A stretch of 64,000 nucleotides of DNA from Gemmatimonadota bacterium (lineage in GTDB: Bacteria; Gemmatimonadota; Gemmatimonadetes; Gemmatimonadales; GWC2-71-9): assembly GCA_039586365.1 (NCBI GenBank), contig JBDHKN010000029.1, forward strand, positions 1 to 64,000, given 5' to 3'. A program made the position numbers and the translations under genes. Below the pieces are notes generated by a model that made no database searches, was not told the DNA's origin, and worked only from the letters and a program-made list of their open reading frames with translations. Below, one piece after another: positions 441 through 26,884 of the stretch (its first letter is position 1; the number at the start of each line of letters is the position of its first letter).

Positions 441-736
441 CGCGTGGCGGTGAGAAGGGGCTCGCCTAATACGATGCCGTGCTGCGATCATAGGAAGGGA
501 CTCCCAAGAGGCAGACTGACCTACGATACCGCGATCGACTAAGCGTGGCTAGGTGAGAGCGGGGCCCTCAGTGGCGTCGAGTATGGTAGCGCCGGATCCT
601 GCAAACCATTTGCAAACCAACAGGAAGGGACAGGACGGGATTAGACGGGACAGGACGGGACGAAGGGGTCGCTAACTCGGTACAGGAAGGGACCATACGG
701 CACCAGAAGGGACCGGACGGGACGAAGACCACCGAA

Positions 737-778
737 CTCCAAAACCGGGGGTTGCAGGTTCGAGTCCTGCCGGGCCTG
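737..778 (+). pseudogene. tRNA-Trp(CCA) 3'-half fragment (att core), not a complete tRNA
   Basis: CTCCAAA anticodon loop, ACCGG, GGGTT, GCAGG-TTCGAGT-CCTGC T-arm, CGGGCCTG acceptor 3' strand; no D-arm or acceptor 5' strand upstream. Confidence 0.85.
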
Positions 779-779
779 T

Positions 780-808
780 AAACGCCGCAGCAATCGCTGC
801 GGCGTTTT
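780..808 (+). terminator. Intrinsic terminator-like hairpin after the tRNA fragment
   Basis: AAACGCCGCAGC-AATC-GCTGCGGCGTTT(T): perfect 12-bp stem ending in T4. Confidence 0.7.
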
Positions 809-933
809 CATGCCCGGCCGTCTCTTGGACCTCGTCGCTCGCTAGGGCTCGCGACATCGGTTCCGAGTCCTGCCGGGCCTGTACGACTGAGCTGCAGGTC
901 TACTGCATTCGTCGGTGACCGCCGCTTCTTCCG

Positions 934-1299
934 CTAGGCCGTACAAGGCCCGTGGATCACCTCGGCTCCGGCAGGAAAGATGTACCACATGTCATATCCT
1001 TCCGACCGCCCGTCAGCAAGCGCTCGGCGAAGTCCAGACGCTCCTCCGGAAGCCAATCTTCCGTAGACGATCCCGCTCCCGTCCGGCGTCCACCCGAGGA
1101 CTGGGTTATATGCCACATCAGCATGGGTCACGAGTTCTCGGATCGAACCGCCCTCATGGGCTCGACGACCGGTAACGTCCGAAGCAAGGATCTCGCTAGT
1201 GGCTGCATCGACCGTAAGGCGCGGTTTCCGCCAGATCCCGTTTCTCGGTGGCTCAGGGCCGAGCCACCGTGCCCTGCCGTAGCTGCCGCCTCGTGTCAC
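934..1299 (-). pseudogene. Chimeric remnant: IS5-family (IS903-like) transposase fragment joined to a TolB-like fragment
   Basis: IWRKPRLTVDAATSEILASDVT resembles the IS903-group WRKLHLAVD...GEILA motif and is followed by PVLGWTPDGSGIVY (PD40-like). Confidence 0.5.
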
Positions 1300-1375
1300 G
1301 CCGCGCGGTCTTCAGTTGACAATGCCCATCGACCAGATGGTCATGCGTCGGAGTGCCAAGGTAGCGAGACGGTTG

Positions 1376-3103
1376 CTAGTACCCCTCTATGTGTCCGTGG
1401 GCCGTTGCTCCGAGCAGGCGGACTGCGGCGTTGTCGTGTTGTATTCTGATCCCTGCCCAGACCTGGCCGGGGTCATCGACAATCTCCAACGGCTGGCCCT
1501 GCGCTCGGATCCACGATACAACGGCTTCGCTGAAGGAGCCTCTCAGGATCAACTGCGGAATCGAACCCCACCATCGAGCATACAGGAACTTGGGTTGATT
1601 CATCGACTCGCTCGGTGTGAAACCGTGCACCAAGATGTTGTATGTGTTCTGGATGTTGACTGAATGGAGTCCGTACCCTGCTGAACCCGCTGCAAGTACA
1701 GGCCGGCCGTCTCTCAGGACGATGCTGGGGCAGATATCGTCGTAGTGGTAGTTCCCCGGACCCTCGATGGCCATCGCTGCCTGTGCCATGCCGGCGATGT
1801 CGGGAATTGAGACGCCATCCACGAAGATGCCGGTATTCCCCCAGGCGCCGGTGTTGATCGTGTGCACCACAGCGGCCGCGTTGCCGGCTTCGTCCACGAC
1901 GAGCTCGGCGGCCGTCTGATTGCTAATCCCTCCGGTGGCAGCGACGGCGCGCTCCAGGTCATACCACTCCCCACTCATGATCTTTTCCCAGGTAAACTGG
2001 GCGGCTGCTTTGGTCAATCTCGTCGTCTGCGAGAAATCACCTTCCGGGAAAAAGCTCTCCGCCACGTTGGCGGCGTTGAGAAAGTTCCGGTACATGGGGC
2101 CGACGCGTACGATCCTGATGAACTGCAAGAGGTCCTCTGCCGAGTGGATGTAGTGACGGGAAGAATCCAGGTCGGACAGCTCGATGAGATTGAATGCCTC
2201 GACAATGCCCACGCCTCCGGGTGCAGGGAGTCCGATGGAGTAGATGTCGTATCCGTTGAAGGTTGTGTGAGTGGCGGGAGCGAGGTTTGCCCGGTATCCC
2301 TCCATATCATCCATGTGAATTCTCCCGCCCTCCCGCTGGATGATGCTCACGAAGTTCTGTGCCCAGGTTCCTTTGTAGACGTAGTCGGCTCCCTCCGCCG
2401 CTACGCGCCTCAGCGTCTCGGCCAATAAGGGTTGCGTGAACTGCTCGTTGGCGCGGAACCGGGTGCCATCAGGTTTCGTGAAAACGGCGACCGCTTCAGG
2501 TTGGCGCGACAGTATCGTCCAATTATCCTGGATGACATTTGCCATCCAGCCCGGCATAGGAAATCCACTCTCCGCCAATTCGATCGCGGGCTGAAACACA
2601 TCGGCAAACGGGAGTTGTCCGAAGTTGTCGTGTGCCGCCTGAACGCCAGCAAAGAAGCCAGGTACCATCGCCGTCCGGCCACTGGCCGATCTCGGAATCG
2701 TGAGAGGATTCGTCTCGCGCAGAGGTACTCTGAACCCGGCGTTCATCGAGCGCACTTGTCCTGTCTGGGCGTCGTAATACACCATGGAAATGACACCCCC
2801 GAAGCTGACGGCCAAACCTGCGAGATGGACGATGTGGGTCATGCCAGCCGCCAACACCGCGTCCGCCGCGTTGCCACCCTGCCTCAGCATGGCCATGCCC
2901 GCCGCGGTTGCACGATGTCCGCCCATGCTCACCACCATGGCGTTGTCGCTGCTGGCGGCAACATGGTACCGGTTCCACACTCCGGACCATGGGCCTTCGG
3001 GCGGCGGCCCGCCCTGACCGTTGCCGTCGTTGCCAACGAGATTGGCGTCGCCGCAACCAACCCACAGCAACGCGAAACACATTACCGCCTTGTTGAACGA
3101 CAT
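1376..3103 (-). CDS. Gamma-glutamyltransferase-family (Ntn hydrolase) lipoprotein
   Basis: AGMAMLRQGGNAADA, VPGFFAG, PAIELAESGF, QTAAELVVDEAGNA (candidate Thr nucleophile), lipobox-like LWVGC. Confidence 0.85.
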   Translation of the reverse strand: MSFNKAVMCFALLWVGCGDANLVGNDGNGQGGPPPEGPWSGVWNRYHVAASSDNAMVVSMGGHRATAAGMAMLRQGGNAADAVLAAGMTHIVHLAGLAVSFGGVISMVYYDAQTGQVRSMNAGFRVPLRETNPLTIPRSASGRTAMVPGFFAGVQAAHDNFGQLPFADVFQPAIELAESGFPMPGWMANVIQDNWTILSRQPEAVAVFTKPDGTRFRANEQFTQPLLAETLRRVAAEGADYVYKGTWAQNFVSIIQREGGRIHMDDMEGYRANLAPATHTTFNGYDIYSIGLPAPGGVGIVEAFNLIELSDLDSSRHYIHSAEDLLQFIRIVRVGPMYRNFLNAANVAESFFPEGDFSQTTRLTKAAAQFTWEKIMSGEWYDLERAVAATGGISNQTAAELVVDEAGNAAAVVHTINTGAWGNTGIFVDGVSIPDIAGMAQAAMAIEGPGNYHYDDICPSIVLRDGRPVLAAGSAGYGLHSVNIQNTYNILVHGFTPSESMNQPKFLYARWWGSIPQLILRGSFSEAVVSWIRAQGQPLEIVDDPGQVWAGIRIQHDNAAVRLLGATAHGHIEGY

Positions 3104-3200
3104 TTCTACCGCCTTGACCGGTTGCCGGCCACGACCCGCTAGGCCTCGTTAATGACATTTGTGCATCAGATTCATTCGCCAGCGCGCTCCCTGCCAATAG

Positions 3201-5024
3201 CTAGTCAGGCAAAGCCTGCAGCACGTCACTGCTGATCCAATAGAAATCCGTGTTCTCGCTTGGGTACTGGTCTCCGATTGCTCTTACGAAAAAGACGTAG
3301 TTCATGTCTCTCGACATCGATGGGAATCTCTCGAAGTGCTCCGAGTTGACCTGTTCTCCCAGGTTCACTGGCTCACCCCAACTCCCGTCCCCCATTCTGC
3401 GACTAATGTAGAGATCGATAATCCCGTAGCTGTTGCCTATCTCCGATGAAGCGAACAGAATGAAGCGTTCTTCTGGATCGACGTAGGGATCCATGGCGTC
3501 TGCCCTGTTGACCGGACCCACGAGCTGCTCGGATGCTACGTATTCGCCGTTAACGAGTTCCGACCAGTAGAGCTTCGGCTCTGTCTCACCCAGCGACCGT
3601 CCAGCGAAGTAGAGGTTACCGCTGCTTGCGACCGAGACCTGTCCCACCGACCTGACTGTATCGAGGGTGGCGGTCACCGCCTGCGGCATACTCCAGCTCT
3701 GACCGACACGTTCGACGTACCAGACGCCGAAGACTGAGTCGCTATCCTCATTAGGGAACGGCTTAAAAGAACCAAAGAAGATCTTGTCACCATCGTGGGA
3801 GACGGCTGGCCCATGGTCGTTCAAGCCTGTCAGGGAAAGCATGCGTTCAGGCCAACCTAGCGTCACTCCATCGAAGGCCGAGAAGAGCAGCGTCTCCTCC
3901 GGCCCTCCATCCAGCAACGCCGACCAGTACAGTTCATCTGACTGTGGTGAGAAGTTGAGGCTGCTGTGCACGAGATACTCAGTCGAAAGGACCTCGGGGG
4001 CAAATGGGATCGCAGTCTGTTGCGGACGCTCCTGACCTAGGAACCGGGGCCGCCATACGGGGTTGATCGCGGTTGCTGGGGCGGGCGTGTTGGTGACACG
4101 TATCAAGTTCGTCCCGTCAGCATTCATCACGTACACTTCCCAGTGGTTGTCACCTGGAAGGCCCGAATCGAACGCGATCAATGAGCCGTCGGGTGACCAT
4201 TTTGGAACATAGTCACCAACGTTGTTGTCGGTGAGTTGGAGTGGGTCAGTGCCATCGGCATTCATTACGTAGACCTCGTAATCCCCACCGGCATTCGCGG
4301 TGAACGCTATCCGTGATCCATCTGGGGACCAGGCCGGCTTTGTCTCATCGAAGGGTGTCGATGTCAGTTCTTGTTCATCCGTCCCATCGATGTTGCTGCT
4401 GTAGATGTCGAAGTTGCCGCTCCTGTTTGAACTGTAGACGAAGCGACTACCGTCAGGCGACCATTTCGCACCGTCACCTTCCACGCCATTCCAACGTCTG
4501 TTGCTGCCGTCCGCGTTCATGATCCAGATCTCGTTGCGATCGCCTTGGGTTCGGTAGATTCTCGTGAAGACAATCTTTGTTCCGTCGGGAGACCAGCAGG
4601 GATCGCTATCCCAAACGCCGGTGGTACTAGTGAGTCTTGTCAAGTTGCTTCCATCAGCATCGAACACATAGATCGACCAAGTCGTCTGATCTGGGTATCC
4701 GACCGCCGCAATGTGCTTTGCGTCGGGTGACCAATCGTGATGATTGAGTCCGATCTGTGCACCGATGATCCTGGTGTTCCCCGTTCCATCTGCATTGATC
4801 GCATAGATCTCATGAACACCAGATACTGGTCCGGGCTGATGGGCATATGCAATCACGCCACCGCCTCTACCATCGAGGGGAATGACAGGATGTCCTGTGG
4901 TATCAGTTGGTGTTGTTGACGCGTCGGCCTCAGTACCCGTCTCACAGCTGGGACCGAGTACCAGGCTGAGTGAGACTATGACAAACAACTTGAGTCGCGC
5001 CATTCTCATAGGGAAGCTCTTCAA
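3201..5024 (-). CDS. TolB-like PD40-repeat lipoprotein with two propeller regions
   Basis: Several WSPDG/MNADG repeats in the N-half and a second PD40-type region (FLGQERP...GWGEPVNLG-like) in the C-half; signal peptide ending in Cys. Confidence 0.85.
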   Translation of the reverse strand: MKSFPMRMARLKLFVIVSLSLVLGPSCETGTEADASTTPTDTTGHPVIPLDGRGGGVIAYAHQPGPVSGVHEIYAINADGTGNTRIIGAQIGLNHHDWSPDAKHIAAVGYPDQTTWSIYVFDADGSNLTRLTSTTGVWDSDPCWSPDGTKIVFTRIYRTQGDRNEIWIMNADGSNRRWNGVEGDGAKWSPDGSRFVYSSNRSGNFDIYSSNIDGTDEQELTSTPFDETKPAWSPDGSRIAFTANAGGDYEVYVMNADGTDPLQLTDNNVGDYVPKWSPDGSLIAFDSGLPGDNHWEVYVMNADGTNLIRVTNTPAPATAINPVWRPRFLGQERPQQTAIPFAPEVLSTEYLVHSSLNFSPQSDELYWSALLDGGPEETLLFSAFDGVTLGWPERMLSLTGLNDHGPAVSHDGDKIFFGSFKPFPNEDSDSVFGVWYVERVGQSWSMPQAVTATLDTVRSVGQVSVASSGNLYFAGRSLGETEPKLYWSELVNGEYVASEQLVGPVNRADAMDPYVDPEERFILFASSEIGNSYGIIDLYISRRMGDGSWGEPVNLGEQVNSEHFERFPSMSRDMNYVFFVRAIGDQYPSENTDFYWISSDVLQALPD

Positions 5025-5620
5025 CTATTCTGGTTGATACGCGATTGCAGGCGAGCCTGAGGATTCGTATTGGGCGAGAATCGCCGGCCGCATCGCTTCC
5101 GGTACGTGTCGTCCGTGCCCCGCGAGAAGCAGTGCCGTACTGCACCGAGATGAATAGGGGTCGGCGCCAATCTCACTGACGCTGCCCTGGCGGTTATTGT
5201 CCCAAGCACAAGTGTTGACGACGACTCCGATTGCCGGCTGTACTGAACTCCGCTTCACAGCTAGATCCTCCGAGGATTCACTGCAATGGTTGCCTCAGAC
5301 GTCGCAGTAGTGATCGACGCATGTGCACCAGTGCAGGTCGATGGCAACACCACAACAGCACTTGGCGGTCATGACCTGATGACCGCCCGAATAGTCTTAC
5401 AGGCGAGCTCAACACGCCACGATTATGCGGCCAGCGGAGGGATCGCGCCGGTAGACGGTTGTATCGCGCGACGAACGGGCCTCACAAGGAGAGGCGAGTT
5501 CGTGAAGGGAGATTCCAGTGGGCTGCTCTGCCTTCGTCCGAGAGTGATTCCTCGATCAACAGGCGAGGCAGGTATATAATTAGGGTGACGCACGGACTAC
5601 TTGGTCCGTCAGTCACACCA

Positions 5621-6796
5621 ATGGATGACATCTTTCCTGAGTCACCGGGCACGGCCGTTGGGTGGCCGATGAGAACCGGTTTGCGCGCGCGCGGTCGTGG
5701 CAGACTGCTGCGACGGCCAGCAGGATCCAGACGCGCCGCGCTTGTTGTGATCGGGGCTGCCACACTACTGAGTGGCACGGGATACGCTACTTGGCGCATG
5801 AGTGACCCGGCGATCACGGCAAGCACAGCACTGCTGCTTAGTCTACCCTACTGGTATCTCTGGGCGGCTCTGGTACCCGCAATCGTCTGGCTATCGCGAC
5901 GGTACCGAATCCGGATCGACAGCTGGATCTCCGGGACGGTGGTACACTTGATCGCAGCTACGCTTATCGCGTTGACCGTGCTTGCCTCCGATACCTTTTT
6001 CAACAGGCTTGCCGGGTTCTGGGATACGACAACCTTCGGGGAAGCCTACGCCCAAGGGTTCATCCTTTGGTTCCACCTTACGATCCTTGTGTACTGGATG
6101 ATAGTCGCGGCAGTGCACGCGGCGGACTACCACCAAGAGTCCTTGGAGAGAGAAGTGGCTGCCGCTCGGCTTGAGACTCAGGTGGCCGAGGCTCGGCTCA
6201 GGCAGCTGCAGATGCAGCTGCATCCTCACTTTCTCTTCAATGCACTACACACCGCTTCCAGCTATGTACGCGATCACCGGCCAAGGGAAGCGACTGACAT
6301 TATCGCAGAACTTGCAGACCTGCTGCGCCGATCGATGGACCATGGCAGCTCTCACGAGGCAACATTGGACGAGGAACTGGCGTTCGTCATGCAGTACCTT
6401 CGAATCGAACAGGCGCGCTTGGGCGAGCGCCTCAATGTCAAGTCCGAAGTCCCAGACGAAGTGAGAAAAGCAAGAGTCCCAGCCATGCTACTCCACATTC
6501 TGGTCGAGAACGCCATTCGGCATGGTATCGCACCGCATGATCGCAGCGGATCTATAGAGATCACCGCCCGCCGCCAAGCGGATTCTCTGCAACTGCGGAT
6601 CCGGGACGACGGCCCCGGATTCCCGACTGGAGACTTCGTACCTGAAGCCACGCAGGTTGGACTCAGGAATACGCGCGAGCGTCTTGACCGCATGTACGGC
6701 GAGCAACAGACTCTTCATCTGTCAAATGACATACGAGGAGGGGCTGTGGTCACCGTCACGATCCCCTGGCACACGGAGTCACGCCTGGATGAATGA
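5621..6796 (+). CDS. LytS/YehU-type membrane sensor histidine kinase
   Basis: QLHPHFLFNAL, LDEEL...YLRIEQAR, LVENAIRHG, DDGPG, GLRNTRERL; N-terminal TM helices. Start uncertain. Confidence 0.9.
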   Translation: MDDIFPESPGTAVGWPMRTGLRARGRGRLLRRPAGSRRAALVVIGAATLLSGTGYATWRMSDPAITASTALLLSLPYWYLWAALVPAIVWLSRRYRIRIDSWISGTVVHLIAATLIALTVLASDTFFNRLAGFWDTTTFGEAYAQGFILWFHLTILVYWMIVAAVHAADYHQESLEREVAAARLETQVAEARLRQLQMQLHPHFLFNALHTASSYVRDHRPREATDIIAELADLLRRSMDHGSSHEATLDEELAFVMQYLRIEQARLGERLNVKSEVPDEVRKARVPAMLLHILVENAIRHGIAPHDRSGSIEITARRQADSLQLRIRDDGPGFPTGDFVPEATQVGLRNTRERLDRMYGEQQTLHLSNDIRGGAVVTVTIPWHTESRLDE

Positions 6797-7601
6797 CACC
6801 GTAGGCATGGCAAATCGGATTAGGACCCTCATCGTGGACGACGAAGCCGCGGCTAGACGCAGCATTTGGCTGCTACTTCAGAACGACCCGGAGATCCAGG
6901 TTGTCGGGCAGTCGGCCAACGGAGCTGATGCCATTGCCGACATAGAGCAACTGGCGCCTGATCTTGTGTTCTTGGACGTGCAGATGCCCGGAGGGAATGG
7001 GTTTGAGGTTCTTGCACAGGCGCAGATCGCCCGGCTTCCGGTGATCGTGTTCGTCACGGCCTACGATGAGTACGCCGTGCGCGCCTTCGAAATCCACGCA
7101 GCTGACTACCTCCTGAAGCCATACTCGGATGCGAGGTTTGCTGAGGCCCTGCAGCGAGCCAAGCGGCGTGTCGGGAACCGGGAAGTTGAACTGCTGAGTC
7201 GGCGACTGTTGCAGCTATTGGCCGATCGAAACGCCCGGGCCACCGGCGCGGGGACCGAAGCTGACTACGTCCAAGAAATCGTGGTTAGGTCAGAGGGTCG
7301 CGTGACATTCCTTGACGCGGCGACAATCGACTGGGTCGAGGCCCAAGACGATTACCTCGTGCTTCACGCGGGGTCACAGCGATACACGGTTCGCAGCACA
7401 ATGAAGGCAATGGAGAGGAGGCTGAATCCCCGACAGTTCTTCCGGACCCACAGGTCGACAATAGTCAACCTGAGGAGCATAAAGGAACTCCAGCAGTACT
7501 TTCACGGCGATCTCTTAGTCATCATGCGAGACGGTACACAGCTCAAGCTGAGTCGTCGTCGCCGCGGGAAACTCGCTGAACTGATGGGCCAGGCCATCTG
7601 A
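6789..7601 (+). CDS. LytTR-family response regulator
   Basis: IVDDE, FLDVQMP, FVTAY, DYLLKP; C-terminal FFRTHRSTIVN and LSRR. Overlaps the kinase stop codon. Confidence 0.93.
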   Translation: MNDTVGMANRIRTLIVDDEAAARRSIWLLLQNDPEIQVVGQSANGADAIADIEQLAPDLVFLDVQMPGGNGFEVLAQAQIARLPVIVFVTAYDEYAVRAFEIHAADYLLKPYSDARFAEALQRAKRRVGNREVELLSRRLLQLLADRNARATGAGTEADYVQEIVVRSEGRVTFLDAATIDWVEAQDDYLVLHAGSQRYTVRSTMKAMERRLNPRQFFRTHRSTIVNLRSIKELQQYFHGDLLVIMRDGTQLKLSRRRRGKLAELMGQAI

Positions 7602-7717
7602 CCGGGGTGCCCGGCAACCTGATCTTAGAGATCGTAAACGATAACCTCCCGCGCCCAGCGCCATGGCAACTTGTTCCCACCAGTTCGGCACACCCCGTGT
7701 CGGCGCTGCAGTAACTC

Positions 7718-7793
7718 CGATCGCCTGACCGGTCAACATCTCATACAGCACATAGCGATCGCCTGACCGGTCAACATCTCATACAGCACATAG
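7718..7793. repeat. Perfect 38-bp tandem duplication
   Basis: CGATCGCCTGACCGGTCAACATCTCATACAGCACATAG at 7718-7755 and 7756-7793, at the 3' break of the kinase remnant. Confidence 0.95.
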
Positions 7794-8135
7794 CCCAACG
7801 AGTAGCTATCGGACTTACTCGTCAGTTCCTTCTCCGCCGTCGCCTGCTCCGAGGACTTGTAGTGCCCTGTGCCCAGCGAGAGACCGGACTCGGTGAGCCG
7901 ACCACCCGCTGCCGCGCTCACCGCCAGTGCGATGCCGAAGTCCATTACCATTGGCCGGCCATCCTGCAACAGGTGTTTTCCGGCTTGATGTCCCAATGGA
8001 TCACGTTGTGCCGCTGCGCGTCGAAGGCATTGCGGGTATTGGAAGCTGGCGGTGGTCTTTGTCTCCTGGACGAAGCGTTCCGCGCCGAGCGCTGTGGCCA
8101 TGCCATCTTCACCCAGGCGGCATTCGATCCCGTAC
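7756..8135 (-). pseudogene. Hanks-type Ser/Thr kinase remnant (deletions, frameshifts)
   Basis: YGIECRLGEDGMAT | ALGAERFVQE | VIHWDIKPEN (other frame) | VMDFGIALAV...LGTGHYKSSEQ...YSLGYVLYEMLTG. Confidence 0.85.
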
Positions 8136-8216
8136 AGGATGGTACAGAACGGGACTAGATGGTACAGGATGGGACGACGGGCACCGAACTCCAAAACCGG
8201 GGGTTGCAGGTACGAG
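8131..8216 (+). repeat. att-like repeat copy B (left-truncated) with tRNA-Trp fragment at 8189-8216
   Basis: GTACAGGATGGTACAGAACGGGAC...GGGCACCGAACTCCAAAACCGGGGGTTGCAGGTACGAG. Confidence 0.85.
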
Positions 8217-8611
8217 AAATCAACGGATGCCATGTAGGTGTTCCCGCTAGTTACCACGACGTGAGCGTCTTCCCCTTCCGCGAAGCCAAGGCATCACGGT
8301 GTGGCCGTTCAGCTCTCGGTCGACTCTTCCGGCATCCCTCCATCTATGCTCCAGCGGACGACGTACTCCACGTCCAACTCGTCTTTCCAGATCGATAACA
8401 TGCGCCATGTCCCGGCATCTGCCCGGTGTCGCGAGCCTCGCCTTCGGGCGCGGTGAGTTCGGTCACCAGGCCATATATGCCACAGCTACGGCAACGCCAA
8501 ATGTGTGGGTAGTTCCGGTGGGGCCAGCCTCGTCACCCCACGAACCGTTCGGTAGCTCGGCACATGCACCGTTCGGGAATTCGGATCTTGGCCCTCTCCC
8601 TCTTAGAGGTG

Positions 8612-9310
8612 TCAATAATCAGTTCGTTCGAACCGTCTGAGCGTGAGCCATGCGGTTGCGCCGGCCAACAAGAGCCCCGCAATCAGAGATCGCCACGGGA
8701 CCGATCCATGCCACTCACGGAAGTCTGCGATGCGCTCCAGGCTCCACGCTTCGAGTCCTAGCGCACCACCTACGGCTCTGAGCACCAGCATAACAGAAAC
8801 GACGAGGAGACCTGCTCGCACCGCTTCTTTTGTGAATGATGTACTCAACATGCTGGGCCAAATCCACAAGGCGGCCGCGGACGCGTTCAGTATCGCTGCA
8901 ACCAGTAGAACACCCGGCCTTACATCCCGCCCCGCAAGCATCCCTGCCAACCACACGGTCACGGAAACTGCCAACCCGAGGCAAAGCACCAGGAGCGTCA
9001 CCACAGTACATTGGGAAATCAGCCATCTCCCCCTCGGCACCGGCAAACTGAGAGTCACCAGGTTCGAGCGAACATTACTCTCGGTCATCGTCCCACCTAC
9101 GGCAAGGACCGCGGCAAGTACTGCAAAGATGAAGTGCTCCATCCCGTTCATCCAACCACCTACCCATCGAGTGAAGCGATCCGGATTCGCCGAATCGAAT
9201 GCACTACCCACCAGGCCTGGGCCGACTAACAACGCGACCAATATCGCGCAGAGCAAGAATCTGTACCGGATGTCGAACCACGCTTTCCACAGCATCATCT
9301 CGTACCTCAC
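8612..9310 (-). CDS. ABC-2 type transporter permease
   Basis: About six TM segments, LSLPVPRGR motif, ends FERTDY; overlaps the ATPase stop. Confidence 0.8.
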   Translation of the reverse strand: MRYEMMLWKAWFDIRYRFLLCAILVALLVGPGLVGSAFDSANPDRFTRWVGGWMNGMEHFIFAVLAAVLAVGGTMTESNVRSNLVTLSLPVPRGRWLISQCTVVTLLVLCLGLAVSVTVWLAGMLAGRDVRPGVLLVAAILNASAAALWIWPSMLSTSFTKEAVRAGLLVVSVMLVLRAVGGALGLEAWSLERIADFREWHGSVPWRSLIAGLLLAGATAWLTLRRFERTDY

Positions 9311-10534: not shown

Positions 10535-10652
10535 CGATCAACGGCGCCGGGAGGGGACGCAGCAACACGAGTGGATTTTCATACGGAGAACTCTACCGCC
10601 ACCGCATGAAAGGCACCAGGCAACGGCATCCGGAAAACGTGAGGGCTTGCAT

Positions 10653-11804: not shown

Positions 11805-11882
11805 AGCGGAGCGAGAGCTCCAAACAACATTCGCTACGGCAGGCGCTGCCAACGACTTCGAGATATTCATGCGGAGGACAAG

Positions 11883-18485: not shown

Positions 18486-18820
18486 GACGCCACCTCCGTT
18501 TCAGACGCCGCGCCAAACCCTTCCCACATCCTCTCCATCCGGCGCCGAGATTCCTCCAGCTCCGTGATCCCCTTTTTCTTCACGGTGAAGTACCGCTTCG
18601 CCTTGCCTCCCCTGACAGGCGTGGGGTCCGCGAGGAAAGACGACACGTAGCCCTTCTTCTCGAGCCGAACCAGCGTAACGTAGATGGCGCTCACCGACAG
18701 GCGACGGCCAGTTCGCTCGAGTATTTCCTGTCTGATGGTGGTGCCGTGAGCGTTCTTCCCCAACCGCCAAACAGCCAACAGCATCAGACGCTCGGCTTCA
18801 CCTAGGTGGGTGCCTTTCAT
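18482..18820 (-). CDS. PadR-family transcriptional regulator
   Basis: LGEAERLMLLAV...AIYVTLVRLEKKGYV...RGGKAKRYF; ATGA overlap with the ADOP gene. Confidence 0.92.
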   Translation of the reverse strand: MKGTHLGEAERLMLLAVWRLGKNAHGTTIRQEILERTGRRLSVSAIYVTLVRLEKKGYVSSFLADPTPVRGGKAKRYFTVKKKGITELEESRRRMERMWEGFGAASETEVAS

Positions 18821-18847
18821 GGAGGAGTTCCTGTAGATTTAAACAAC

Positions 18848-18876
18848 AAAATAAATATAATAACTGGTGTGTGCAA
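18848..18876 (-). promoter_or_regulatory. Putative sigma70-type promoter of the padR-ADOP operon
   Basis: TTGCAC-N17-TATTTT in an AT-rich patch upstream of padR. Confidence 0.45.
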
Positions 18877-19014
18877 GGACGAAGACCAGAGGCGCGCTGC
18901 AGCGACTAGCCAACGACGAATGATGGAGAGGCCATGGTCCATTCAGGCGTCTCCTCAGGAGCACCCCGGGTGCCGAGCCGGAGGCGATAGTGCCCGGCGT
19001 CCAGGAGCCAGGTA

Positions 19015-19200
19015 GATGCTGACGAGTTGCCGGAGTTCTTGCGTCGTGGTGGCTTGCGTGCGGTGTATCACGGACGTTCCCATCGAGCCACTCTGAAGGA
19101 ACTCACCCGAGCGTACCAGAACCTGGTGGAGGATTCGACGCGGGTGATGCAGCGGCTGAAGGCGTTGTTCCGTGCCCGTGGCACCAAGGCGCCCGGTCGT
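19015..19200 (+). mobile_element. IS110-family transposase internal fragment
   Basis: DADELPEFLRRGGLRAVYHG...LKELTRAYQNLVEDSTRVMQRLKALFRARG. Confidence 0.7.
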
Positions 19201-19261
19201 CTTCGCTATCGCTCAGAGATCGCCACCGATCCTGCCCTACAGGTGACGCCGGTCTTCGCTC

Positions 19262-20974
19262 CTATCGGCGCCCCGTCTGACTCGGGCCTAGCTCAACCTC
19301 GCAGGTGAGCGAGAGTCCGTCCTGTCGGCACCACGCCTGTCCCTCGCTGGTGAACAATTCCTTGCCCGCCCACTCATATGTTTCGTCTGCCGGCATAGCC
19401 GGCTGGGCGGAATAGTAACTTCCTGCCATCGCCGGATCTCCCACGCCGTCCCACTTCGAAATGAGCGGATAGTTGAAAACCGGCCGGCTGGCGACCACTG
19501 CCCCATCGATTGTCCTTGACGTCAACAGGCTGTCGGGCGCGACGCCTTTCTCCACCCAGTGCATCATCGCGCTGACCACGTCCATTTCGCTAGGACCCGA
19601 GCCGCCTTGGCAATGATACATGCCGGGAATCATGAACGTGCGGGTGAAGGTGTCGGCAAGTTCCTCGCCGACCGTTTCGCGAAGCGCGGCGCGATAGGCG
19701 AGCGTGTTAGTTGGTGCGATGTGCTGGTCCGCCGAACCGTGCCAGAGGATCAGCTTGCCGCCCGCCTCGGCGAAAGGCCGAAGGTCTGGGTTCATCGCGG
19801 CCAGCACCTGGCCGGTCGGCTTCAGGCTTTCGAAGGTCGCCGCGTCGAAGGCCAGATCGGCCAGGTCGTAATCGGGTGCGGGGTCGTCCCACCAAGCCAG
19901 GTGGCGTAGAAAGCCCAATGCGATCGCCACGGCGAAGGGCGGCCGGTCAGGGTCGTCGGCGGTATTGACGCCGGGCCAGGCGGCCTCGGAGCCCGGCATG
20001 GCGCCGGAGATCGTCAGCCGGCGGCCGGTTTCGTCGCGCGGACCCTCATAGATGCGCCGCGCCACCTCGGCTTCCGCCGGTGCGAAGCAGGTAGCTGGGT
20101 CAGCGCCCTCTGCACAGGTGGCCGAAGCGACGTCGAAGGTGCAGAGGCGAGGGTCGTCGATGACGCGATCGTTCAGCCCGTCGATGCCGTCGCAGGCGGC
20201 GAGGACCGCCTCATGCAACAGCGGCACCCGACCGCTCTCCAGTACTGCCTTCCCGTTCGGCCCCCGGTTCGCCATTGCGTTCCAGGAGTGATAGAAAGTG
20301 TTCTGAATGACGAAGTTGAAGGCCGGCGCTCCGGCCGTGATGCCGTCGAAGTCTTCGGGATAGCGCTGCGCAGACATCATCCCCTCCCTGCCGCCGTCCG
20401 AACAGCCGACGAAGTAGGAATGTCGCGGCTCCTGTCCGTAAAACGCTGCGATGATTGCCTTGCTTGCCACCGCAACCACATGCACGCCGCGATAGGCGAA
20501 GTCAATCCGGGCCTGAGGGTCACCGGCCGCCCAGATCCCGTCGTCGAGACCCGCGCCCTGATGGCCAAGGTTTGACGCCACCGTGGCGGCCGTCCCTTCA
20601 TCTATCGGAGCGCAACCGTTAGCCTGACTGACACCCATGCGGATCGAGCCGCAAAGGCCGCCGCAGCCGGCGAACACTAGTCGTTGGGTCCAGTTCATGG
20701 TCGGCAGGTGCAGCTCGAAACCCACTTGTGGGGCTACGTAGCCCGTTACCCTACAATAGGGTGCGGGGGCGGTCTCGGTCACCAAATCGGCGGACAGGAT
20801 GCGGGTCGGCGCCTCAGGCAGCGTGGAAAAGTCGGCGAACGTCAGCCGCTCGCATTCCATGCCCGGCCTCACGACTGGTGGATCGATCAGATTGGACTCC
20901 TGTGCCCATGCGAAAGGCGCCGAAGTTATCATGAGGGCCAACAGTCCAGAAGAGACGTTGCCACGGATGGTCAT
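19262..20974 (-). CDS. Tannase/feruloyl esterase-family alpha/beta hydrolase, secreted
   Basis: GCSDGGREG, AQRYPEDFDGI, WHGSAD, PGMYHCQGG (CS-D-HC arrangement); signal peptide. Confidence 0.93.
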   Translation of the reverse strand: MTIRGNVSSGLLALMITSAPFAWAQESNLIDPPVVRPGMECERLTFADFSTLPEAPTRILSADLVTETAPAPYCRVTGYVAPQVGFELHLPTMNWTQRLVFAGCGGLCGSIRMGVSQANGCAPIDEGTAATVASNLGHQGAGLDDGIWAAGDPQARIDFAYRGVHVVAVASKAIIAAFYGQEPRHSYFVGCSDGGREGMMSAQRYPEDFDGITAGAPAFNFVIQNTFYHSWNAMANRGPNGKAVLESGRVPLLHEAVLAACDGIDGLNDRVIDDPRLCTFDVASATCAEGADPATCFAPAEAEVARRIYEGPRDETGRRLTISGAMPGSEAAWPGVNTADDPDRPPFAVAIALGFLRHLAWWDDPAPDYDLADLAFDAATFESLKPTGQVLAAMNPDLRPFAEAGGKLILWHGSADQHIAPTNTLAYRAALRETVGEELADTFTRTFMIPGMYHCQGGSGPSEMDVVSAMMHWVEKGVAPDSLLTSRTIDGAVVASRPVFNYPLISKWDGVGDPAMAGSYYSAQPAMPADETYEWAGKELFTSEGQAWCRQDGLSLTCEVELGPSQTGRR

Positions 20975-21315
20975 CTAGACCTCCCTTCTTCCTTGAGCTT
21001 GCTCTCCTTGGGGAGCTTCCTGCGGGCATCTTCCCCAAGGTATCGTCGACCGGGACTGCACTCCTACCGGGATAATGTCCGGAATACACGCCTGTCCATC
21101 CGATTTCGATCCGTGCGCACGGTGTCGGTGGTCGTGAGGCTGGCATCATCGGCGATTTCGATCGGCACCTCCTGCGCGCCTGTGGGATGTTCGGTAGAAC
21201 AGCGCTTTCTCCTTGGGCACGCTCACCGCCGCTCAAGGGACCCATCTAGCCAAGAACGCAACGCGGGCGCCCATCGCCGCACACCAATCGAACGAAGCTA
21301 CGATCTTCCGCTCTC

Positions 21316-21394
21316 TGCAAACCATTTGCTAACCCACTGCACGGGACTGGATGGTACAGGACGGGACAGGATGGGATGAAGGATACGCTAAGTC
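21316..21394 (+). repeat. att-like repeat copy D (arm only, no tRNA part)
   Basis: TGCAAACCATTTGCTAACC...ACGGGACTGGATGGTACAGGACGGGACAGGATGGGATGAAGGATACGCTAAGTC. Confidence 0.8.
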
Positions 21395-21459
21395 CGCAGA
21401 CCGCCCTCGATCGTCGGCCCGGTCATCTGAAGGACGATCCCGTAAAGGGCCCGTTTCCT

Positions 21460-21680
21460 AAGGCTGTTTGCACGCTAACAATCGTTGTCTGCACCGGTGC
21501 ACACGGCATTCGAAACGGTGCATGCGCCGCGTGCAGGGTTCCAGCAAGCGTGTGCAACGGTACAGACAGCATGGATGGTGTTTCATATTGCGTGTGCAAT
21601 GTTACACAGGCTTGGGACGCTTTGCATACGGGCATTGCGGTCCTGCAAACAGCGTTCGTGGCCCTGCAAACATCGTCCGA
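21460..21680. repeat. Degenerate 21-bp (3x7) periodic TGCA repeat tract
   Basis: TGCA at 21469, 21490, 21532, 21553, 21595, then 21623, 21644, 21665. Confidence 0.65.
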
Positions 21681-22066
21681 GCCCTCAAATTCGACAGGGG
21701 TGAAGGGATGGCTGTAGCCCTCGCTCAGAACGCCTCAACGTAGACGAGCGCAGTCCCTCTGGGTGCTGCGACACTCAGCTCGCGTTCCCAGACAGCTAGT
21801 TCGCCAGCCCCGTCAGTGAGAACGCGTTCCCGGTCACGTGGAACGGGTTGCCGATCAGCCAGGACGCGAGAGAGGTGGTGGGAGACGCGTTCTAGGGTTG
21901 CTGCAACCCGAGCTGGGTCGTCCAGGTGGCGAGCTGGATTAGGGAGAAGCCGGCCATAGGGGTGGAGGAACCCCGGCTTCTGCCACGTCACTGTATGTAG
22001 CACAAGGAGATAGCCGATACCGGCCGGGTGAGTCGGTGTAGTTGCCCGACAGCCCTGGTTCCGCGG

Positions 22067-23431
22067 TCATTGCCCTGGCCTCCCGTGCGCAATCTTCGGC
22101 CACCATTCAGCAAGATTGAAACTGTCAGGATTCCGGTGACAGCCCTGACACGTCTGTTCGTTCGGGATTCTGCCACCGGCCGCTACAAACGCCTCGTGGT
22201 CGCTCATGACATTGACCGCCATGTACTCTGACCCAGGCCCGTGGCAACTCTCGCAGCCGACTCCCTCCGTCTGGTCGAACGTGCTGGCGAACAGCGCGTC
22301 GGGGTCGCCGAAGCCGGTTGAGTGGCAGATGAGGCAGCGATCGTCCTCGCGCGGGTCCTCAATGTCCCGGAAATGGGGGCGGGACCGTGCGAGCACCAGC
22401 GACCACTCAGTCGCGAGTCGCCAGTACGCGGATCCGTGTCGACTGCTCACCCACGGCACGTACTGGTTGCCATGCTCCTGGCGAATGTGGCAGTCGCGGC
22501 ATGCCTGTGAACCAACGTACATCGGATGATCACGTTTCTTCCCCGTTACCGCCCGCCGCAGGAAATGCACCTCGATCCCACTCACGGTACCACCTTCGTC
22601 GCGTGAGAATTCGACACTCCAGGGTTCCGACCGGCAGTAGAATGAATCCGGGCCGGTTGCGTACAGCTCATCGAGACCGAAATCCTGTATCATCAACCTG
22701 CCGTCTTCCACCCAGACCTTGAAGTGGAAATACTGGTCCACGTCGAACAGGCCCTGAAACTCGTACAGCGCCTCCTCTGCGACAGAAACCTCGGCCGGGC
22801 GCTCGAACAAATGATCTGCCGGCAGCAGGCCGTCTCCGTCGCGCAAATCGGGATCAGCGCCGGCAGCGAGAAGTAGCTCGACCACATCCGGCTGGCCCGC
22901 CCGGTACGCGACGTGCAACGGAGTCCAACCTTCGTTCGTGGTTGCACGAAGGTCCGCGCCCAGTTCGATGAGCAGCCGCGCTACTTCGCGGCAGCCACGC
23001 CGGGCCGCGACATGCAGAGGTGTTCGGCCCCACTGGTTCTGTGTAGTGATATCCCCGCCAGCGTCGATGAGAAGCTGCAGCATGTCGGGTCGGTCGTAAT
23101 GCGCCACCCGGTGCATAACAGTGCCTCCATCGGCCCCGACGCGAGTAACCGGTGCACCGTTGGCCAAGAGCCGCCGGAACGTGCGCCAGTGTTTGCGTGT
23201 GGCCGCCCAGTCGAGGGCCGTCATTCCCTGAGCATCTACAGCATTTGCGAGGGTGGAATCCTCCTCCAACCCCCTCCGTACCGCGTTGTCATCCCCGCGC
23301 CTCGCTGCAGCGACAAACTCGCGTGCCCTACTGTCGTCCTGAATTTCCTGCGGGACATCGTGGTCGGTGAGCGAATAGCCTGCAACGTACAAGAACACGG
23401 CGATAGCTACCCCTCCGATGGCGTTTGTCAT
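22067..23431 (-). CDS. Exported ankyrin-repeat protein fused to a C-terminal tetraheme cytochrome c (c554-like) domain
   Basis: GMTALDWAA, GRTPLHVAA, GWTPLHVA ankyrin repeats; CRDCH, CLICH, GVGCESCHGPG, CQGCH; N-terminal hydrophobic helix; RBS before ATG 23431. Confidence 0.88.
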   Translation of the reverse strand: MTNAIGGVAIAVFLYVAGYSLTDHDVPQEIQDDSRAREFVAAARRGDDNAVRRGLEEDSTLANAVDAQGMTALDWAATRKHWRTFRRLLANGAPVTRVGADGGTVMHRVAHYDRPDMLQLLIDAGGDITTQNQWGRTPLHVAARRGCREVARLLIELGADLRATTNEGWTPLHVAYRAGQPDVVELLLAAGADPDLRDGDGLLPADHLFERPAEVSVAEEALYEFQGLFDVDQYFHFKVWVEDGRLMIQDFGLDELYATGPDSFYCRSEPWSVEFSRDEGGTVSGIEVHFLRRAVTGKKRDHPMYVGSQACRDCHIRQEHGNQYVPWVSSRHGSAYWRLATEWSLVLARSRPHFRDIEDPREDDRCLICHSTGFGDPDALFASTFDQTEGVGCESCHGPGSEYMAVNVMSDHEAFVAAGGRIPNEQTCQGCHRNPDSFNLAEWWPKIAHGRPGQ

Positions 23432-23622
23432 GTCGTCTCCCCTCCAGTGAAGGCCCGGGCGACACTGGCACAAGCTTACCTACAGTGATGCTTGCGGAGC
23501 GCCTCGCCGCTAGTGACGCCTTGTCACGACGCTCCAAGCACTCAAGTACGTCGTGGGCGAGTTCACTCAAGCCGCCAGACGTAGCTGTGCGATCGAGAAT
23601 CACAGGTACGCGAACAGCATTG

Positions 23623-25841
23623 CTAGGGATGGCAGAAGGATTCCGAAACTGCTTGCGCGTCGAAGGCCGTTTGCTTCTGCCGAGCCTTGTCGATGAGCGG
23701 CGTGAAACGCGGGTTGCTGTGCAGAGGCTTCAGGAACGGATTGTACTCTTCGAGATAGCGATAGTTGCAGAACCCCCAGTTAATCGCTCTGTCCAGCCAC
23801 TCGAGGGCGTCGTCGTCGGCGCCAACCATAGCGAGACAACCGGCGATGAAGATCGGGAACGTCTCATCGGTCTTGGCCACTTCCACCATGACGTGCTTTT
23901 CGGACATCTGTGTCATGACCGCATTGCGGTCACCGTCCGCTGCCCGGCAGTACAGTTCACTGAGATCTGCAACAGGCACCGCGTCGGTAGCTGCAACGCC
24001 CGCAAAGCCCTCTCTCGCCTCGTCGAGCCGACCGGAGTGTGCTTTTGCCAGTGCCAGAAACCATGAGATATGCGTGTTATCTAAGCCCAGATCCTCGATT
24101 GTCTTCTGGAGCCGGGACGTGGCAGTATCAAACTGGCCATCCATCAGATCTACCCATGCCTGGGCGGCACTGGCGTACATCTCGAGCGGGTCCAGAACAA
24201 CGGCCTCAGCCGCGACTTCCCGTGCCTCGTCGAGTCTACCTACCATGGCGAGGATCCCTCCAAGAAAGCTGAGGACGTCTGTATTCCTATCTATCTCTCT
24301 CGCACGCCTCAGCAGTCTCACGACTTCCTCGAAGTCGCCCTCTTTGGACCGGACATGTGCTTTCGCAAACAGCGCCAACCCAAGGTCCGGCGCCAATACG
24401 AGTGCTCTCGATGCATGTTTGTCGGCTTGCTGCAGGGTCTCACGGTCGTGGCTGATCCCGAATTCGAACGAGAGACTGTAGCACCGAGCGAGCGTCGCAT
24501 GTATCAGCGCATTCTCTCCCGCGATCTCCTTGGCCCGGCGGACGAGTTGCGTCGCTCGTTCGATGCCTTCCTTTGACAGTTTCATCATCTCCTGGCGTGC
24601 ACGGAGCAAGGCATCATAGGCGCGGAAGTCTTCCAAGCGGCGATACGCAATGCGGCGGCCCTCGTCCGGAGTCAATGTTACTCGTAGAGCCTCAGCAATT
24701 CGACGCGACAGCTGTTCCTGAAGATCGAAGATGTCATTGAGGCTGCCGGTGTACCTGTCCGCCCAGAGGTGTCCTTGAACTGCATCGCAGAGGTACGGGA
24801 AATGACGCGAAGCTGCCGCAACTCGGAAAGCTCGGCGATCAGCTCCTCGGTCAATCCGTCAGCAAAGAACGCGTTGTCCGGATCGGGGCTCAGATTCTCG
24901 AACGGCAGCACCACGATCGACTTGATTTCCGGCTCCGCCTCCTTCGCAGCCGCAAACAGCGCCTCGGCGAACGCCTTGGCCGACTCGAACCGGTCCGCTG
25001 GCGCTTTGCCAAGCGCCCTGCTAATGGCTGCAGCCACCGGCTGCGGAACGCCCGAGCGGACCGCGTCAATCGCGGGTGCCGGTTCGGACACGTGCTTCAG
25101 CAACACGGCGCGGAGAGTTGATGCAGTGAAGGGCGGATCTCCGGCGAGCATCTCGTACAGCACGCACGCCAGCGAGTAGACGTCGCTCCTGCTATCGATC
25201 TCTCTTTCACCCGCCACCTGCTCGGGACTCATGTAGTTCGGTGTACCCAGGGGCAGGCCCGTACCGGTGAGGCGCTCGCCGCCCGCCGCCGTGACCGCCA
25301 ACGCAATGCCGAAGTCGGCGACCACCGCATGGCCTTCACGCATGAGGACGTTCTCAGGCTTGATGTCCCTGTGCACCACACCCTGCCGATGTGCCGACTC
25401 GAGTGCCTCGGCGATCTGGGCCGTGATCCTCAGGGCATCCTCGATGGGAAGCTGCTTCTCGCGGTTGAGTCTCTGTCTGAGTGACTCTCCCTCGACATAC
25501 GGCATAACGTAGTAGAGTAACGAGTCTGCCTCTCCTGAGTCATGCAGTGGAAGGATGTGCGGGTGCTGCAGGTTGGCGGTGACGGTGATCTCGTTCAGAA
25601 ACCGGTTGGCACCAAGGACCGCCGAAAGGTCCGGACGCAAGACCTTGATCGCCACCTGGCGGTGGTGCTTACAGTCCTCGGCGAGGAAGACGGTCGCCAT
25701 CCCACCGCTACCGATCTCTCGCTCGATGGTGTAGCGGTCGGCGAGGGCCGTCTTGAGGCGCTCCAAAGGGTCAGACGTGCGCTGAACTCCAGGGCGGAGC
25801 CTTCGCAGGGCCGTCTTGAAGCGCTCCAGGGGGTCAGACAT
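23623..25841 (-). pseudogene. Ser/Thr kinase-TolB_N-TPR gene split by an internal deletion with frameshift at about 24770
   Basis: Kinase ORF 24678-25841 (HRDIKPEN, DFG, SIVVLPFENLS...RVISRTSAMQFKD) continues in another frame as HLWADRYTGSLNDIFDLQEQL into the TPR ORF 23623-24675; the usual VLEGSVRR segment is absent. Confidence 0.85.
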
Positions 25842-25869
25842 TCACTGAACTTCCAGGTGGAGTCCCCGC
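25744..25869. repeat. Imperfect 63-bp tandem duplication spanning the kinase start and leader
   Basis: Units 25744-25806 and 25807-25869, about 50/63 identical by hand count; gives SDPLERFKTAL...SDPLERLKTAL. Confidence 0.85.
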
Positions 25870-25912
25870 TAAGCTACGGGCCGTCTGGTGTTGCGGCCAG
25901 GGTGGACTGCCC

Positions 25913-26264
25913 TGTAAACCACTGGCAAACCAACAGGAAGGGACAGGACGGGACGGAGGGTTGCTAAGTCGGTACAGGACGGGCCAAACGGGACCAGGTG
26001 GCGGGCAGGCGTTAGGCAGGTGTTATGGAGTCGGGATCAGCGTTTCTTCCGGCGGTTACGGCCCCGAAGGCCTCGGTTTCGGCGGCTTTCCGACACTTTC
26101 GGGTCCCTGCGTTGCTCGGGGGTTGCAGGTTCGAGTCCTGCCGGGCCTGTGAAGCGCCGCACATCGTGCGGCGTTTTCAGCCCGGCATACTCGCTCTAAC
26201 CGTCGACTCGTCCGCTGGCGCGCACTCGCCGCGGCTTGACGAGTCCGAGTCCTGCCGGGCCTGT
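25913..26264 (+). repeat. att-like repeat copy E with tRNA-Trp fragments at 26117-26149 and 26244-26264
   Basis: TGTAAACCACTGGCAAACCAACAGGAAGGGACAGGACGGGAC..GCTAAGTCGGTACAG, about 120 bp unrelated insert, CGGGGGTTGCAGGTTCGAGTCCTGCCGGGCCTG, hairpin GCGCCGCAC-ATC-GTGCGGCGTTTT, second TCCGAGTCCTGCCGGGCCTGT. Confidence 0.85.
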
Positions 26265-26290
26265 TTCAGAATCAGTTGCAGTACAAGCGC

Positions 26291-26884
26291 TTAGGGGGTC
26301 CAATTTCGGACCCCTTTCGTTTGACAACGGTTGGGAGATCCAGCACACCGCTCATGAAACGCGCAGCATCGGCCTGAGCAGCCTGAGAAGGCTTCACTTA
26401 GGTCCTCCATGATCACCTCAGGCTTATCCCCGATCCACAGGGACGCCTGAGCCGTCCCGAGCTGTTCTGCGAGCAGTGTGGCTACCGCAGGTCGGACGGC
26501 ATGAAACGCTCGACCTTTGACGTGGGCTAATCCGGCCTTTCGCTCAAGCTTCTTCAGCAAGTCGTTCATCGAGTCGTAAGGCGAGTGATGAGCGGAGTTG
26601 CGCCAACAGCTGAGGACCCAAGGAGATTCTGCGCGGCGCTGTTTGAACACCTCCCACAAAAGCTCTCTGACTGACGGCACCATCGGCACTTGACGGTCTG
26701 GTTGGCCCTTTGACCCTTTGCCTGCGACCTGAAGGTGAGAAGGCCTGCAAGGTCCACCTCGGTTCGGTCCGGCGGCCTGAAGTAGTAGGGAGTACCGAAG
26801 TCCACGTCGGCCCACCTCAGCTCCAGGATCTGTGAGATTCCAGAGCCGTACACCCGATTGAGGCCGATAACGAGTCGAAATCAC
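26291..26884 (-). pseudogene. Tyrosine recombinase/integrase catalytic-domain remnant
   Basis: YGSGISQILELRWADVDF (box I, catalytic Arg position reads Gly) in one frame; VPM...AGL...AFHAVR (HxxR)...WIGD in another; points toward the tRNA fragment. Confidence 0.8.

Follow-up and report, generated by a model that had tools for sequence, protein, structure and literature searches.

Repeated tRNA-Trp junctions with a conserved attachment-site-like arm bound integrase-free cargo units in Gemmatimonadota

The repeated junctions and their cargo

The DNA analyzed here, referred to as the window, comprises the first 64 kb of contig C51 (JBDHKN010000029.1) of a Gemmatimonadota bacterium, whose draft assembly is a metagenome bin of 5.44 Mb in 132 contigs. 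It contains five plus-strand copies of a structured repeat, starting at positions 600, 8128, 15491, 21316, and 25913, in which an arm of direct repeats is joined, in the complete form, to a displaced 3' half of tRNA-Trp, and the intervals between the copies are occupied by cargo genes. A profile built from 24 arms, all taken from other genomes and contigs, gave exactly five matches in the 5.44-Mb assembly (E-values from 3e-36 to 4e-8) and none in a reversed-assembly control. These are the five same-strand copies claimed in an earlier note made from the sequence alone. No copy occurs elsewhere in the assembly, and the placement on a single contig and a single strand is neither a scatter in both orientations nor a dispersal of the repetitive extragenic palindrome (REP) or bacterial interspersed mosaic element (BIME) type.

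All junction features lie on the plus strand. In copy 1, the arm is complete (600-736) and consists of two copies of TGCAAACC, four 10-bp GGGAC units, GCTAACTC, four more units, and CACCGAA. It is followed by a displaced 3' half of tRNA-Trp (737-781), which begins at the anticodon loop CTCCAAA (737-743) and matches positions 22-75 of the tRNA-Trp gene on contig C103, and then by a segment (780-882) with a terminator-like hairpin (780-808), a spacer, and, once more, the tRNA T-arm and 3' end (859-882). Junction 2 (8128-8216; arm match 8128-8188) retains only the right half of the arm, without the arm pair and the GCTAA block, and runs from CACCGAA into CTCCAAA and a tRNA piece reaching to near position 60. 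Junction 3 (15491-15637; arm match 15491-15616) has a near-complete arm with one 10-bp unit fewer and a degenerate tRNA piece, while the arm of junction 4 (21316-21398) is truncated after GCTAAGTC and no tRNA piece follows. Past this truncated junction, two CCTGCAAACA words spaced 21 bp apart (21640-21680) are possibly an eroded arm. The truncated arm of junction 5 (25913-25999) is fused to the arm of a second integrase system (26000-26116), which has two copies of GGCAGG(C/T)GTT at 26004-26024 and is followed by a segment (26117-26264) holding a tRNA-Trp piece from position 42, a terminator-like hairpin (26152-26177), a spacer, and a second T-arm copy (26243-26264). In genome G064, a 2.9-kb island that contains an integrase remnant has the same GGCAGG(C/T)GTT pair at each end.

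The copies in the window are 60-80% alike. The elements of the consensus given in the earlier note, namely the TGCAAACC pair, the GCTAA(G/C)TC block, and GGGAC units in 10-bp phase (autocorrelation peak of 0.52 at lag 10), are present in the repeat, but the full consensus describes copy 1, and parts of it are absent or truncated in copies 2, 4, and 5. The join of CACCGAA to tRNA-Trp at CTCCAAA was recovered at three of the five copies (737, 8189, and, degenerate, 15618) and not at copies 4 and 5. An Rfam scan of positions 1-30000 gave no match, the GC profile is flat (57-64%) with no island signal, and a sigma-70 and terminator scan of positions 20000-28600 gave no excess.

The unit ending at junction 1 carries the 5' part of a PD40 beta-propeller gene (3-491, minus strand; Pfam PF07676) that is cut by the contig start; over the 472 nt that run up to the arm, it shares 93% identity with a unit in G064. 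Unit 1 (883-8127; 7.2 kb) encodes a gamma-glutamyltranspeptidase, a PD40 protein, a histidine kinase, and a LytTR regulator, together with a broken kinase piece (7733-8019), as identified by Pfam and tblastn. Unit 2 (8217-15490; 7.3 kb) encodes an ABC-2 permease, an ABC ATPase, a GntR protein, a PDZ protein, an ATC-hydrolase-like protein, and a MacB permease, and its kinase stub comprises 43 codons with its promoter motif (15290-15480). Unit 3 (15640-21315, minus strand; 5.7 kb) contains, by Pfam, a MacB permease, a PadR regulator, and a tannase/feruloyl esterase, and unit 4 (21399-25912, minus strand; 4.5 kb) an ankyrin protein and a kinase-TPR gene that is split by a frameshift and has its promoter motif 10-20 bp from the arm. 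In G003, the kinase-TPR unit matches unit 4 at 90.6% and 79.9% identity.

The cargo of the intervals had been described as unrelated, which does not hold throughout, as three intervals end in the same Ser/Thr kinase family (the broken piece, the 43-codon stub, and the frameshifted gene) and MacB-type permeases occur in two. Across the genome, these two families total 81 and 69 matches, respectively. The absence of phage, conjugation, and replication genes was confirmed by Pfam for 45 open reading frames (ORFs) scanned in the window, and no integration or transfer genes were found by Pfam in these 45 ORFs and 102 ORFs of relatives. The PADLOC matches are generic kinase, ankyrin, and ABC domains and were not accepted as defence systems.

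Just upstream of arms linked to kinases, the conserved bases belong to a promoter-like motif of the kinase itself, which also occurs at kinases outside the arrays, so these units end 10-20 bp past the motif. Upstream of many kinase genes genome-wide (e.g., at window positions 60323-60360), the sense strand reads CTGGCC and, some 15 nt further on, TA(G/C)CTTAG, which is probably a promoter of the lineage. Tandem duplications were seen at the kinase start (63 bp; 25744-25869) and in the broken kinase piece (38 bp; 7718-7793). Elsewhere in the window, heptamer-type GAGAGC(G/C) repeats form long imperfect intergenic hairpins at 55553-55613, 61485-61517, and 63297-63386, and related nine-base hairpins follow tRNA halves in L064, L065, L072, and L076.

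The tRNA-Trp target and the arm in related genomes

The sole intact tRNA-Trp gene of the genome was located at C103:29477-29552, after tRNA-His and 521 bp from the contig end, and thus on another contig than the array. No overlap joining C103 and C51 was detected, and the array contig is placed behind tRNA-Trp by inference from the relatives. An ORF cut by the end of C103 directly after tRNA-Trp (L228:2741-3073) resembles, by eye, a DUF559-type nuclease. In 11 relatives, arms lie behind tRNA-Trp on one contig, on the same strand, and 0.7-5.3 kb away, so that the intact tRNA and its same-strand displaced 3' fragments are seen together downstream of one target gene, in tandem. The proposed link of the repeat to tRNA-Trp is upheld by arrays directly behind this gene, and in the present genome the same two components are spread over two contigs. 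Exceptions are one inverted partial copy (L068) and copies away from tRNA-Trp. Among the latter is a complete arm inside a tRNA-Met island (L165; G171:422831), in which CACCGAA is followed by GTCCAGC without a tRNA half, as a secondary-site insertion would be. The arm and tRNA-Trp half at L070:2397-2483 are misread by ARAGORN as a tRNA-Leu gene, so such junctions are open to mis-annotation as tRNA genes.

All the genomes compared are metagenome bins. The arm is present in 18 other Gemmatimonadota-type genomes and eight metagenome contigs, as well as on one 1.9-kb contig in a bin labelled Nitrospira. Its distribution is patchy, with six carriers among the 61 nearest genomes and seven among 401 genomes of the order, one of them marginal; the exact arm pair was found in three of 401 genomes of the phylum, all in the window's family. 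The single-contig chromosome G171 shows the same array layout.

The crossover point can be read from 33 junctions compared with the tRNA. Within the 7-nt anticodon loop, identity is 97-100%, and it is 0-3% at the two bases that precede the loop (AA vs. GT), so the identity block starts at the loop, as it does in tRNA islands. The pattern used for collecting junctions required CACC and CTCC, and those columns are therefore no test, but the two-base mismatch was unconstrained. This census agrees with the attachment (att)-type junction with crossover at the tRNA-Trp anticodon loop that had been proposed. In the available part of the Islander survey, anticodon-centred crossover is the commonest class (2083 of 3919 islands; PMC4383910).

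The left edge of the arm is sharp, the majority-base frequency rising from 0.39 upstream to 0.94 in the first 37 bases (25 of 40 copies, those without the kinase promoter). The 26 full arms differ in length mostly by steps of 10 bp, and their middle spacer is variable in sequence but nearly fixed in length. Such a spacing would fit GGGAC units that act as directionality-factor sites, by analogy with directionality factors that bind direct repeats, one per DNA turn, as stated in the accessible text of PMC11963761. After four identical pairs were dropped, full arms were 85% identical (71-96) over 313 between-genome pairs and 81% over eight within-genome pairs. Between this genome and five carriers, a housekeeping gene that is presumably of the Xer type shows 69-73% identity; for the core genes before tRNA-His, the values are mostly 65-80%, with one pair at 86%. 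The non-coding arm (85%) and some cargo (80-93%) are thus better conserved between genomes than the core genes (about 70%). In one of 12 viral contigs (L145), the same arm pair separates an integrase from a tRNA; in three others (L144, L153, and L154), it adjoins integrase or tRNA sequence, and the remaining eight have neither. No viral contig matched the long arm pattern or the integrase family P0001 described below.

Units were defined as bounded on the left by a tRNA or a junction and on the right by this arm, and their genes were predicted by simple ORF calling. With near-identical units (G003/G154 and L020/L073) entered once, 38 units were obtained, with a median of 2.6 kb and a range of 0.7-8.9 kb. 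None of the 38 carries an integrase trace (two profiles, E<0.05), which is as the earlier note had it for the units of the window and contrasts with tRNA islands that hold the integrase gene inside the element. A single ORF fills at least 70% of 24 of the 38 units, and 21 of these 24 ORFs point at the tRNA (minus strand). In a separate count, the adjacent long ORF is on the minus strand at 32 of 37 arms, which are not independent since about a third are kinases. Mostly single-gene cassettes with one polarity, as in integrons and attC-site clusters that have no integron integrase (CALINs), are therefore a feature of the relatives and not of the four window units.

Both the content and the order of the blocks differ between genomes, as expected from the earlier note (G006, which has 100-N gaps, was left out for unit order). 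The amidohydrolase-PD40 unit is first in G061 and third in G062, the kinase-TPR unit is first in G063 and further out elsewhere, and the tannase stands alone in its unit in G061 and G154 and in the window belongs to a larger one. Cargo matches above core identity run up to the arm, at 90.6% over 1144 nt between this genome (G000) and G003 and at 93% over 472 nt between G000 and G064.

At its left end, a unit usually has a tRNA half and a terminator-like hairpin, to which an 85-121-nt spacer and another copy of the tRNA end are often added. The arrangement of hairpin, 85-121-nt spacer, and second 19-24-nt tRNA-end copy seen in the window (780-882 and 26152-26264) has 13 more cases in the relatives; it looks like a tiny unit inserted at the T-loop and was not found elsewhere in the genome. 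A 44-48-nt T-loop insert with common ends such as CTCGCGTCTGCTTCGCAAC was also noted in displaced tRNA halves (Trp, Phe, and Asp-like), at C37:16022, C37:19565, C94:10511, C94:24146, and C104:25036 of G000 and in L054, L056, L017, L061, L029, L063, L020, L072, L041, and L043. In this genome, five of nine matches to the CTCGCGTCTGCTTCGCAAC-type motif lie in displaced halves and none in an intact tRNA.

Integrase searches and the origin of the arrays

A broken C-terminal remnant of a tyrosine integrase of the P0001 family lies in two frames at 26291-26884 (minus strand), just beyond junction 5 (PF00589, E 0.005; 45-50% identity to P0001 in two frames; family profile, E 4e-65). In P0001, the reading frame continues into sequence that is the reverse complement of the tRNA-Trp 3' end, which marks tRNA-Trp as the target of the family. 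The statement that no live integrase is in view holds for 883-25912, with the qualification that this frameshifted remnant follows. P0001-family remnants also lie behind junctions in G064, G171, and G207, and in G064 and G207 they accompany GGCAG-type arm pairs and not TGCAAACC. The remnant was therefore rejected as the cognate integrase of the arm, an association that falls short of proof.

Searches for an intact integrase tied to the TGCAAACC arm gave none in the genomes and loci covered. PF00589 has 11 matches in this genome, none by the array or tRNA-Trp, and comparison of the genome's own integrases with the window revealed no cognate. The same was true of the P0001 family in 301 order and 401 class genomes, of the arm pair with one mismatch in 10 genomes, and of a tRNA end followed by the arm pair in genome contigs (one match, in G171). 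Proteins with a tail reading through the arm gave five matches, none with a Pfam family, and a related-locus search with the remnant returned three weak, unrelated matches.

Other arm systems share this target. The 3' half of tRNA-Trp was matched in 156 of 251 family genomes (four of them unpublished and used for this tally alone), mostly once, and the extra copies bear at least five other arm types. The tRNA-Trp locus is thus a hotspot common to several unrelated arm systems, and the window array is a mosaic rather than one system. G726 has an intact 429-aa integrase frame, accompanied by CCAGTGACGTTT repeats, directly behind its tRNA-Trp. Another of its contigs carries integrase-free units that end in these repeats, which is the pattern expected of a helper and its dependent units for a sister system. 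The present genome also has junction sets with other arms at tRNA-Phe (C125:179, C94:24146, C37:16022, and C37:19565 of G000) and at tRNA-Arg TCT (C3:18689 and C3:17087 of G000; arms 91% alike). The first tRNA-Phe unit is filled by a single kinase gene.

We consider it probable that the arm is the P arm of a lambda-type tyrosine-integrase site, that the arrays arose by serial insertions at tRNA-Trp, and that trimmed units are moved by a transient helper. The junctions themselves are best read, from their sequence, as attR/attP-type products of serial integration at tRNA-Trp. A unit would enter as a circle whose attP comprises the arm, the anticodon loop, and the tRNA half; a lambda-type integrase would insert the circle at tRNA-Trp, rebuilding the tRNA and pushing older units outward, and every insertion would leave behind a junction that combines the P arm of the new unit, the 7-bp overlap, and the left end of the older unit (tRNA half and terminator). 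The TGCAAACC pair would bind the integrase and the 10-bp repeats a directionality factor or a bending protein. Deletions may have trimmed the units while selection preserved the arm, and the units may still move between genomes with the transient helper, in trans or else as cis-mobilised tandems. The sharp trimming, the conservation pattern typical of protein sites, and the sharing of cargo across genera together suggest that trimmed units have kept moving. The 26 full arms would then constitute a natural mutagenesis set for an uncharacterised integrase and its directionality factor. The window array is an older, eroded example that is mixed with a second system.

Several observations weigh against this reading. 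PF00589 searches of 14 arm-bearing relatives (15 entries, of which G195 repeats G063) and of the fetched loci gave no cognate integrase, and neither a circular form nor an empty site was observed. Among the public sequencing runs listed, none contained more than 0.22 of the words searched for and none was of RNA, which weighs neither way. Lambda-type excision needs both arms. The right-end arm is known from about 40 copies, whereas a left-side (P') TGCAAACC pair occurs at only two junctions (G171 and G062) and at no tRNA-proximal end inspected; if units do move with one arm only, this would bear on the minimal attP and on how cassettes are made. Truncated arms are frequent, including three of five in the window, and the window units, at 4.5-7.3 kb and with several genes, are unlike the typical unit of the relatives. 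The evidence for exchange is also exposed to binning error, which can mimic high cargo identity on short contigs: the 90.6% kinase match rests on a 4.6-kb contig, and misbinning may explain why G003 and G154, bins of different genera, have two near-identical unit sets (98.5-100%).

The truncated arms and the near absence of left arms would be expected if the units were dead relics, that is, autonomous islands that lost their integrase in place and are now immobile, with the arm persisting either because the insertions are recent or because it was co-opted as sequence upstream of the cargo promoter. This explanation is unlikely, but it has the strongest claim among the rivals. It is consistent with the integrase remnants of another family behind junctions in G000, G064, G171, and G207, with the kinase genes broken in three window units, and with the kinase promoter motif 10-20 bp from the arm. 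Random decay, however, does not predict the lack of any integrase trace in all 38 units, nor a cut at the arm's first base in 25 copies with unlike upstream sequence, nor the recurrence of one trimmed unit, at 80-93% identity, in hosts that are about 70% alike. If the units are relics after all, the locus would be an unusually readable record of island decay.

A different possibility, put forward tentatively and with low expectation, is that the arrays are tRNA-anchored cassette libraries at tRNA-Trp, tRNA-Phe, and tRNA-Arg, in which single transcription units from the lineage's own expanded gene families are captured beside the 136-bp arm and traded between genera by a rarely assembled helper integrase for which the one arm and the tRNA half suffice. 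If true, phage-type att sites would here have given rise to an integron-like system. A dedicated capture system appears improbable; in it, a helper recombinase, host-kept or common, would take up single transcription units beside the arm and file them at tRNA-Trp, so that the units never were full islands. The single-gene units of 0.7-3.7 kb with fixed polarity, the boundary just past the cargo promoter, the cargo drawn from the families that this lineage has expanded, and the similar arrays with different arms that this genome has at tRNA-Phe and tRNA-Arg speak for capture. Yet no recombinase is fixed beside the array, where the upstream flank of the tRNA consists of core genes, several unrelated arm types share the same tRNA, some with ordinary island integrases, and the arm is as patchy in the order as noted above.

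It is very improbable that units born by integration now move without an integrase, by homologous recombination between the repeats. Repeats of about 190 bp that are 77-96% alike do flank each unit, and the failure to find a cognate integrase would be accounted for, but copies within a genome are not homogenised relative to those between genomes, and conservation follows the protein-site pattern instead of being even along the repeat. An assembly artefact, with separate loci collapsed or mis-joined at the repeat, would suit a draft bin whose array begins at a contig end but is hardly credible, as the copies in the window are too unlike one another and the same layout occurs in independent assemblies, including G171.

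Comparison with known systems

The earlier note regarded the array as an undescribed system, which is overstated, as tandem units without integrases that are flanked by att sites are known at tRNA and tmRNA genes in cis-mobilisable elements (CIMEs), Dehalococcoides, and Alteromonas; tandems of SXT are a further case in the accessible part of PMC5812530. New here are the arm family itself and the reduction of units to single oriented genes, and the arrays are best read as a miniaturised variant of known tandem accretion, not as an integron. No paper on the arm or on such arrays in Gemmatimonadota was found in the literature searched, which did not extend to subscription papers and supplements.

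The description as integron-like applies to the cassette form, in view of the 24 single-ORF units among 38, but there is neither an integron integrase nor attC. PF00589 gave no integron integrase beside the array, the junctions are direct-repeat arms with tRNA halves, and Rfam gave no match in positions 1-30000. According to the text available to us, integrons and CALINs likewise hold mostly single-gene, one-polarity cassettes that need a recombinase from elsewhere (PMC11389934). They differ from the present arrays, which have no IntI and no attC-type palindrome, use a direct-repeat arm and a tRNA half, and carry cargo that keeps its promoter region.

The island survey by Islander offers a parallel for the junctions, as far as its accessible text goes, with a regenerated tRNA, a displaced 3' fragment, crossover at subsite A, and an attP of about 250 bp (PMC4383910). 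It requires an integrase and at least 2 kb per island and lists only four tandems of three or more, and the present arrays would therefore be missed. Where finders require an integrase and 2 kb, single-gene exchange in an abundant and mostly uncultured phylum would be invisible. In the part of a 2026 preprint on six clinical species that was available, att-delimited elements are almost always >4 kb and 6% lack integrase vestiges (10.64898/2026.01.13.699239), which makes integrase-free units of 0.7-3 kb atypical.

Among tandem systems, CIMEs have lost integration and transfer genes, keep their att sites, and are stacked at a tRNA end by later site-specific insertions, as described in the accessible portion of PMC5704250. 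The arrays resemble them in lacking both kinds of genes and in their tandem position at a tRNA. By definition, CIMEs keep attL and attR (PMC5704250), whereas here the attR-type arm is kept and a recognisable left arm is rare; the units are also much smaller and mostly of one oriented gene, and no helper integrative and conjugative element (ICE) or integrative and mobilisable element (IME) was found. The ssrA islands of Dehalococcoides also stand in tandem behind a stable-RNA gene whose end is repeated as their bounds, and carry cargo from an expanded host family. As far as the consulted text of PMC3146451 goes, 15 of 31 islands there lack the integration module and 16 of 31 keep it, with the serine recombinase DsiB and a 20-bp repeat, in contrast to a 136-bp arm, an anticodon-loop crossover, and no integrase in any of 38 units. 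The additive islands of Alteromonas (PMC4898812) and the tycheposon islands of Prochlorococcus (10.1101/2020.12.28.424599) are, in the portions accessible to us, likewise tRNA-anchored hotspots of cassettes with partial tRNA repeats, in which the newest cassette lies nearest the tRNA, similar cassettes occur in distant hosts, and transient vectors bear the integrase. The same portions describe partial tRNA repeats and no long conserved arm at each junction, and tycheposons, unlike the units described here, encode their own integrase.

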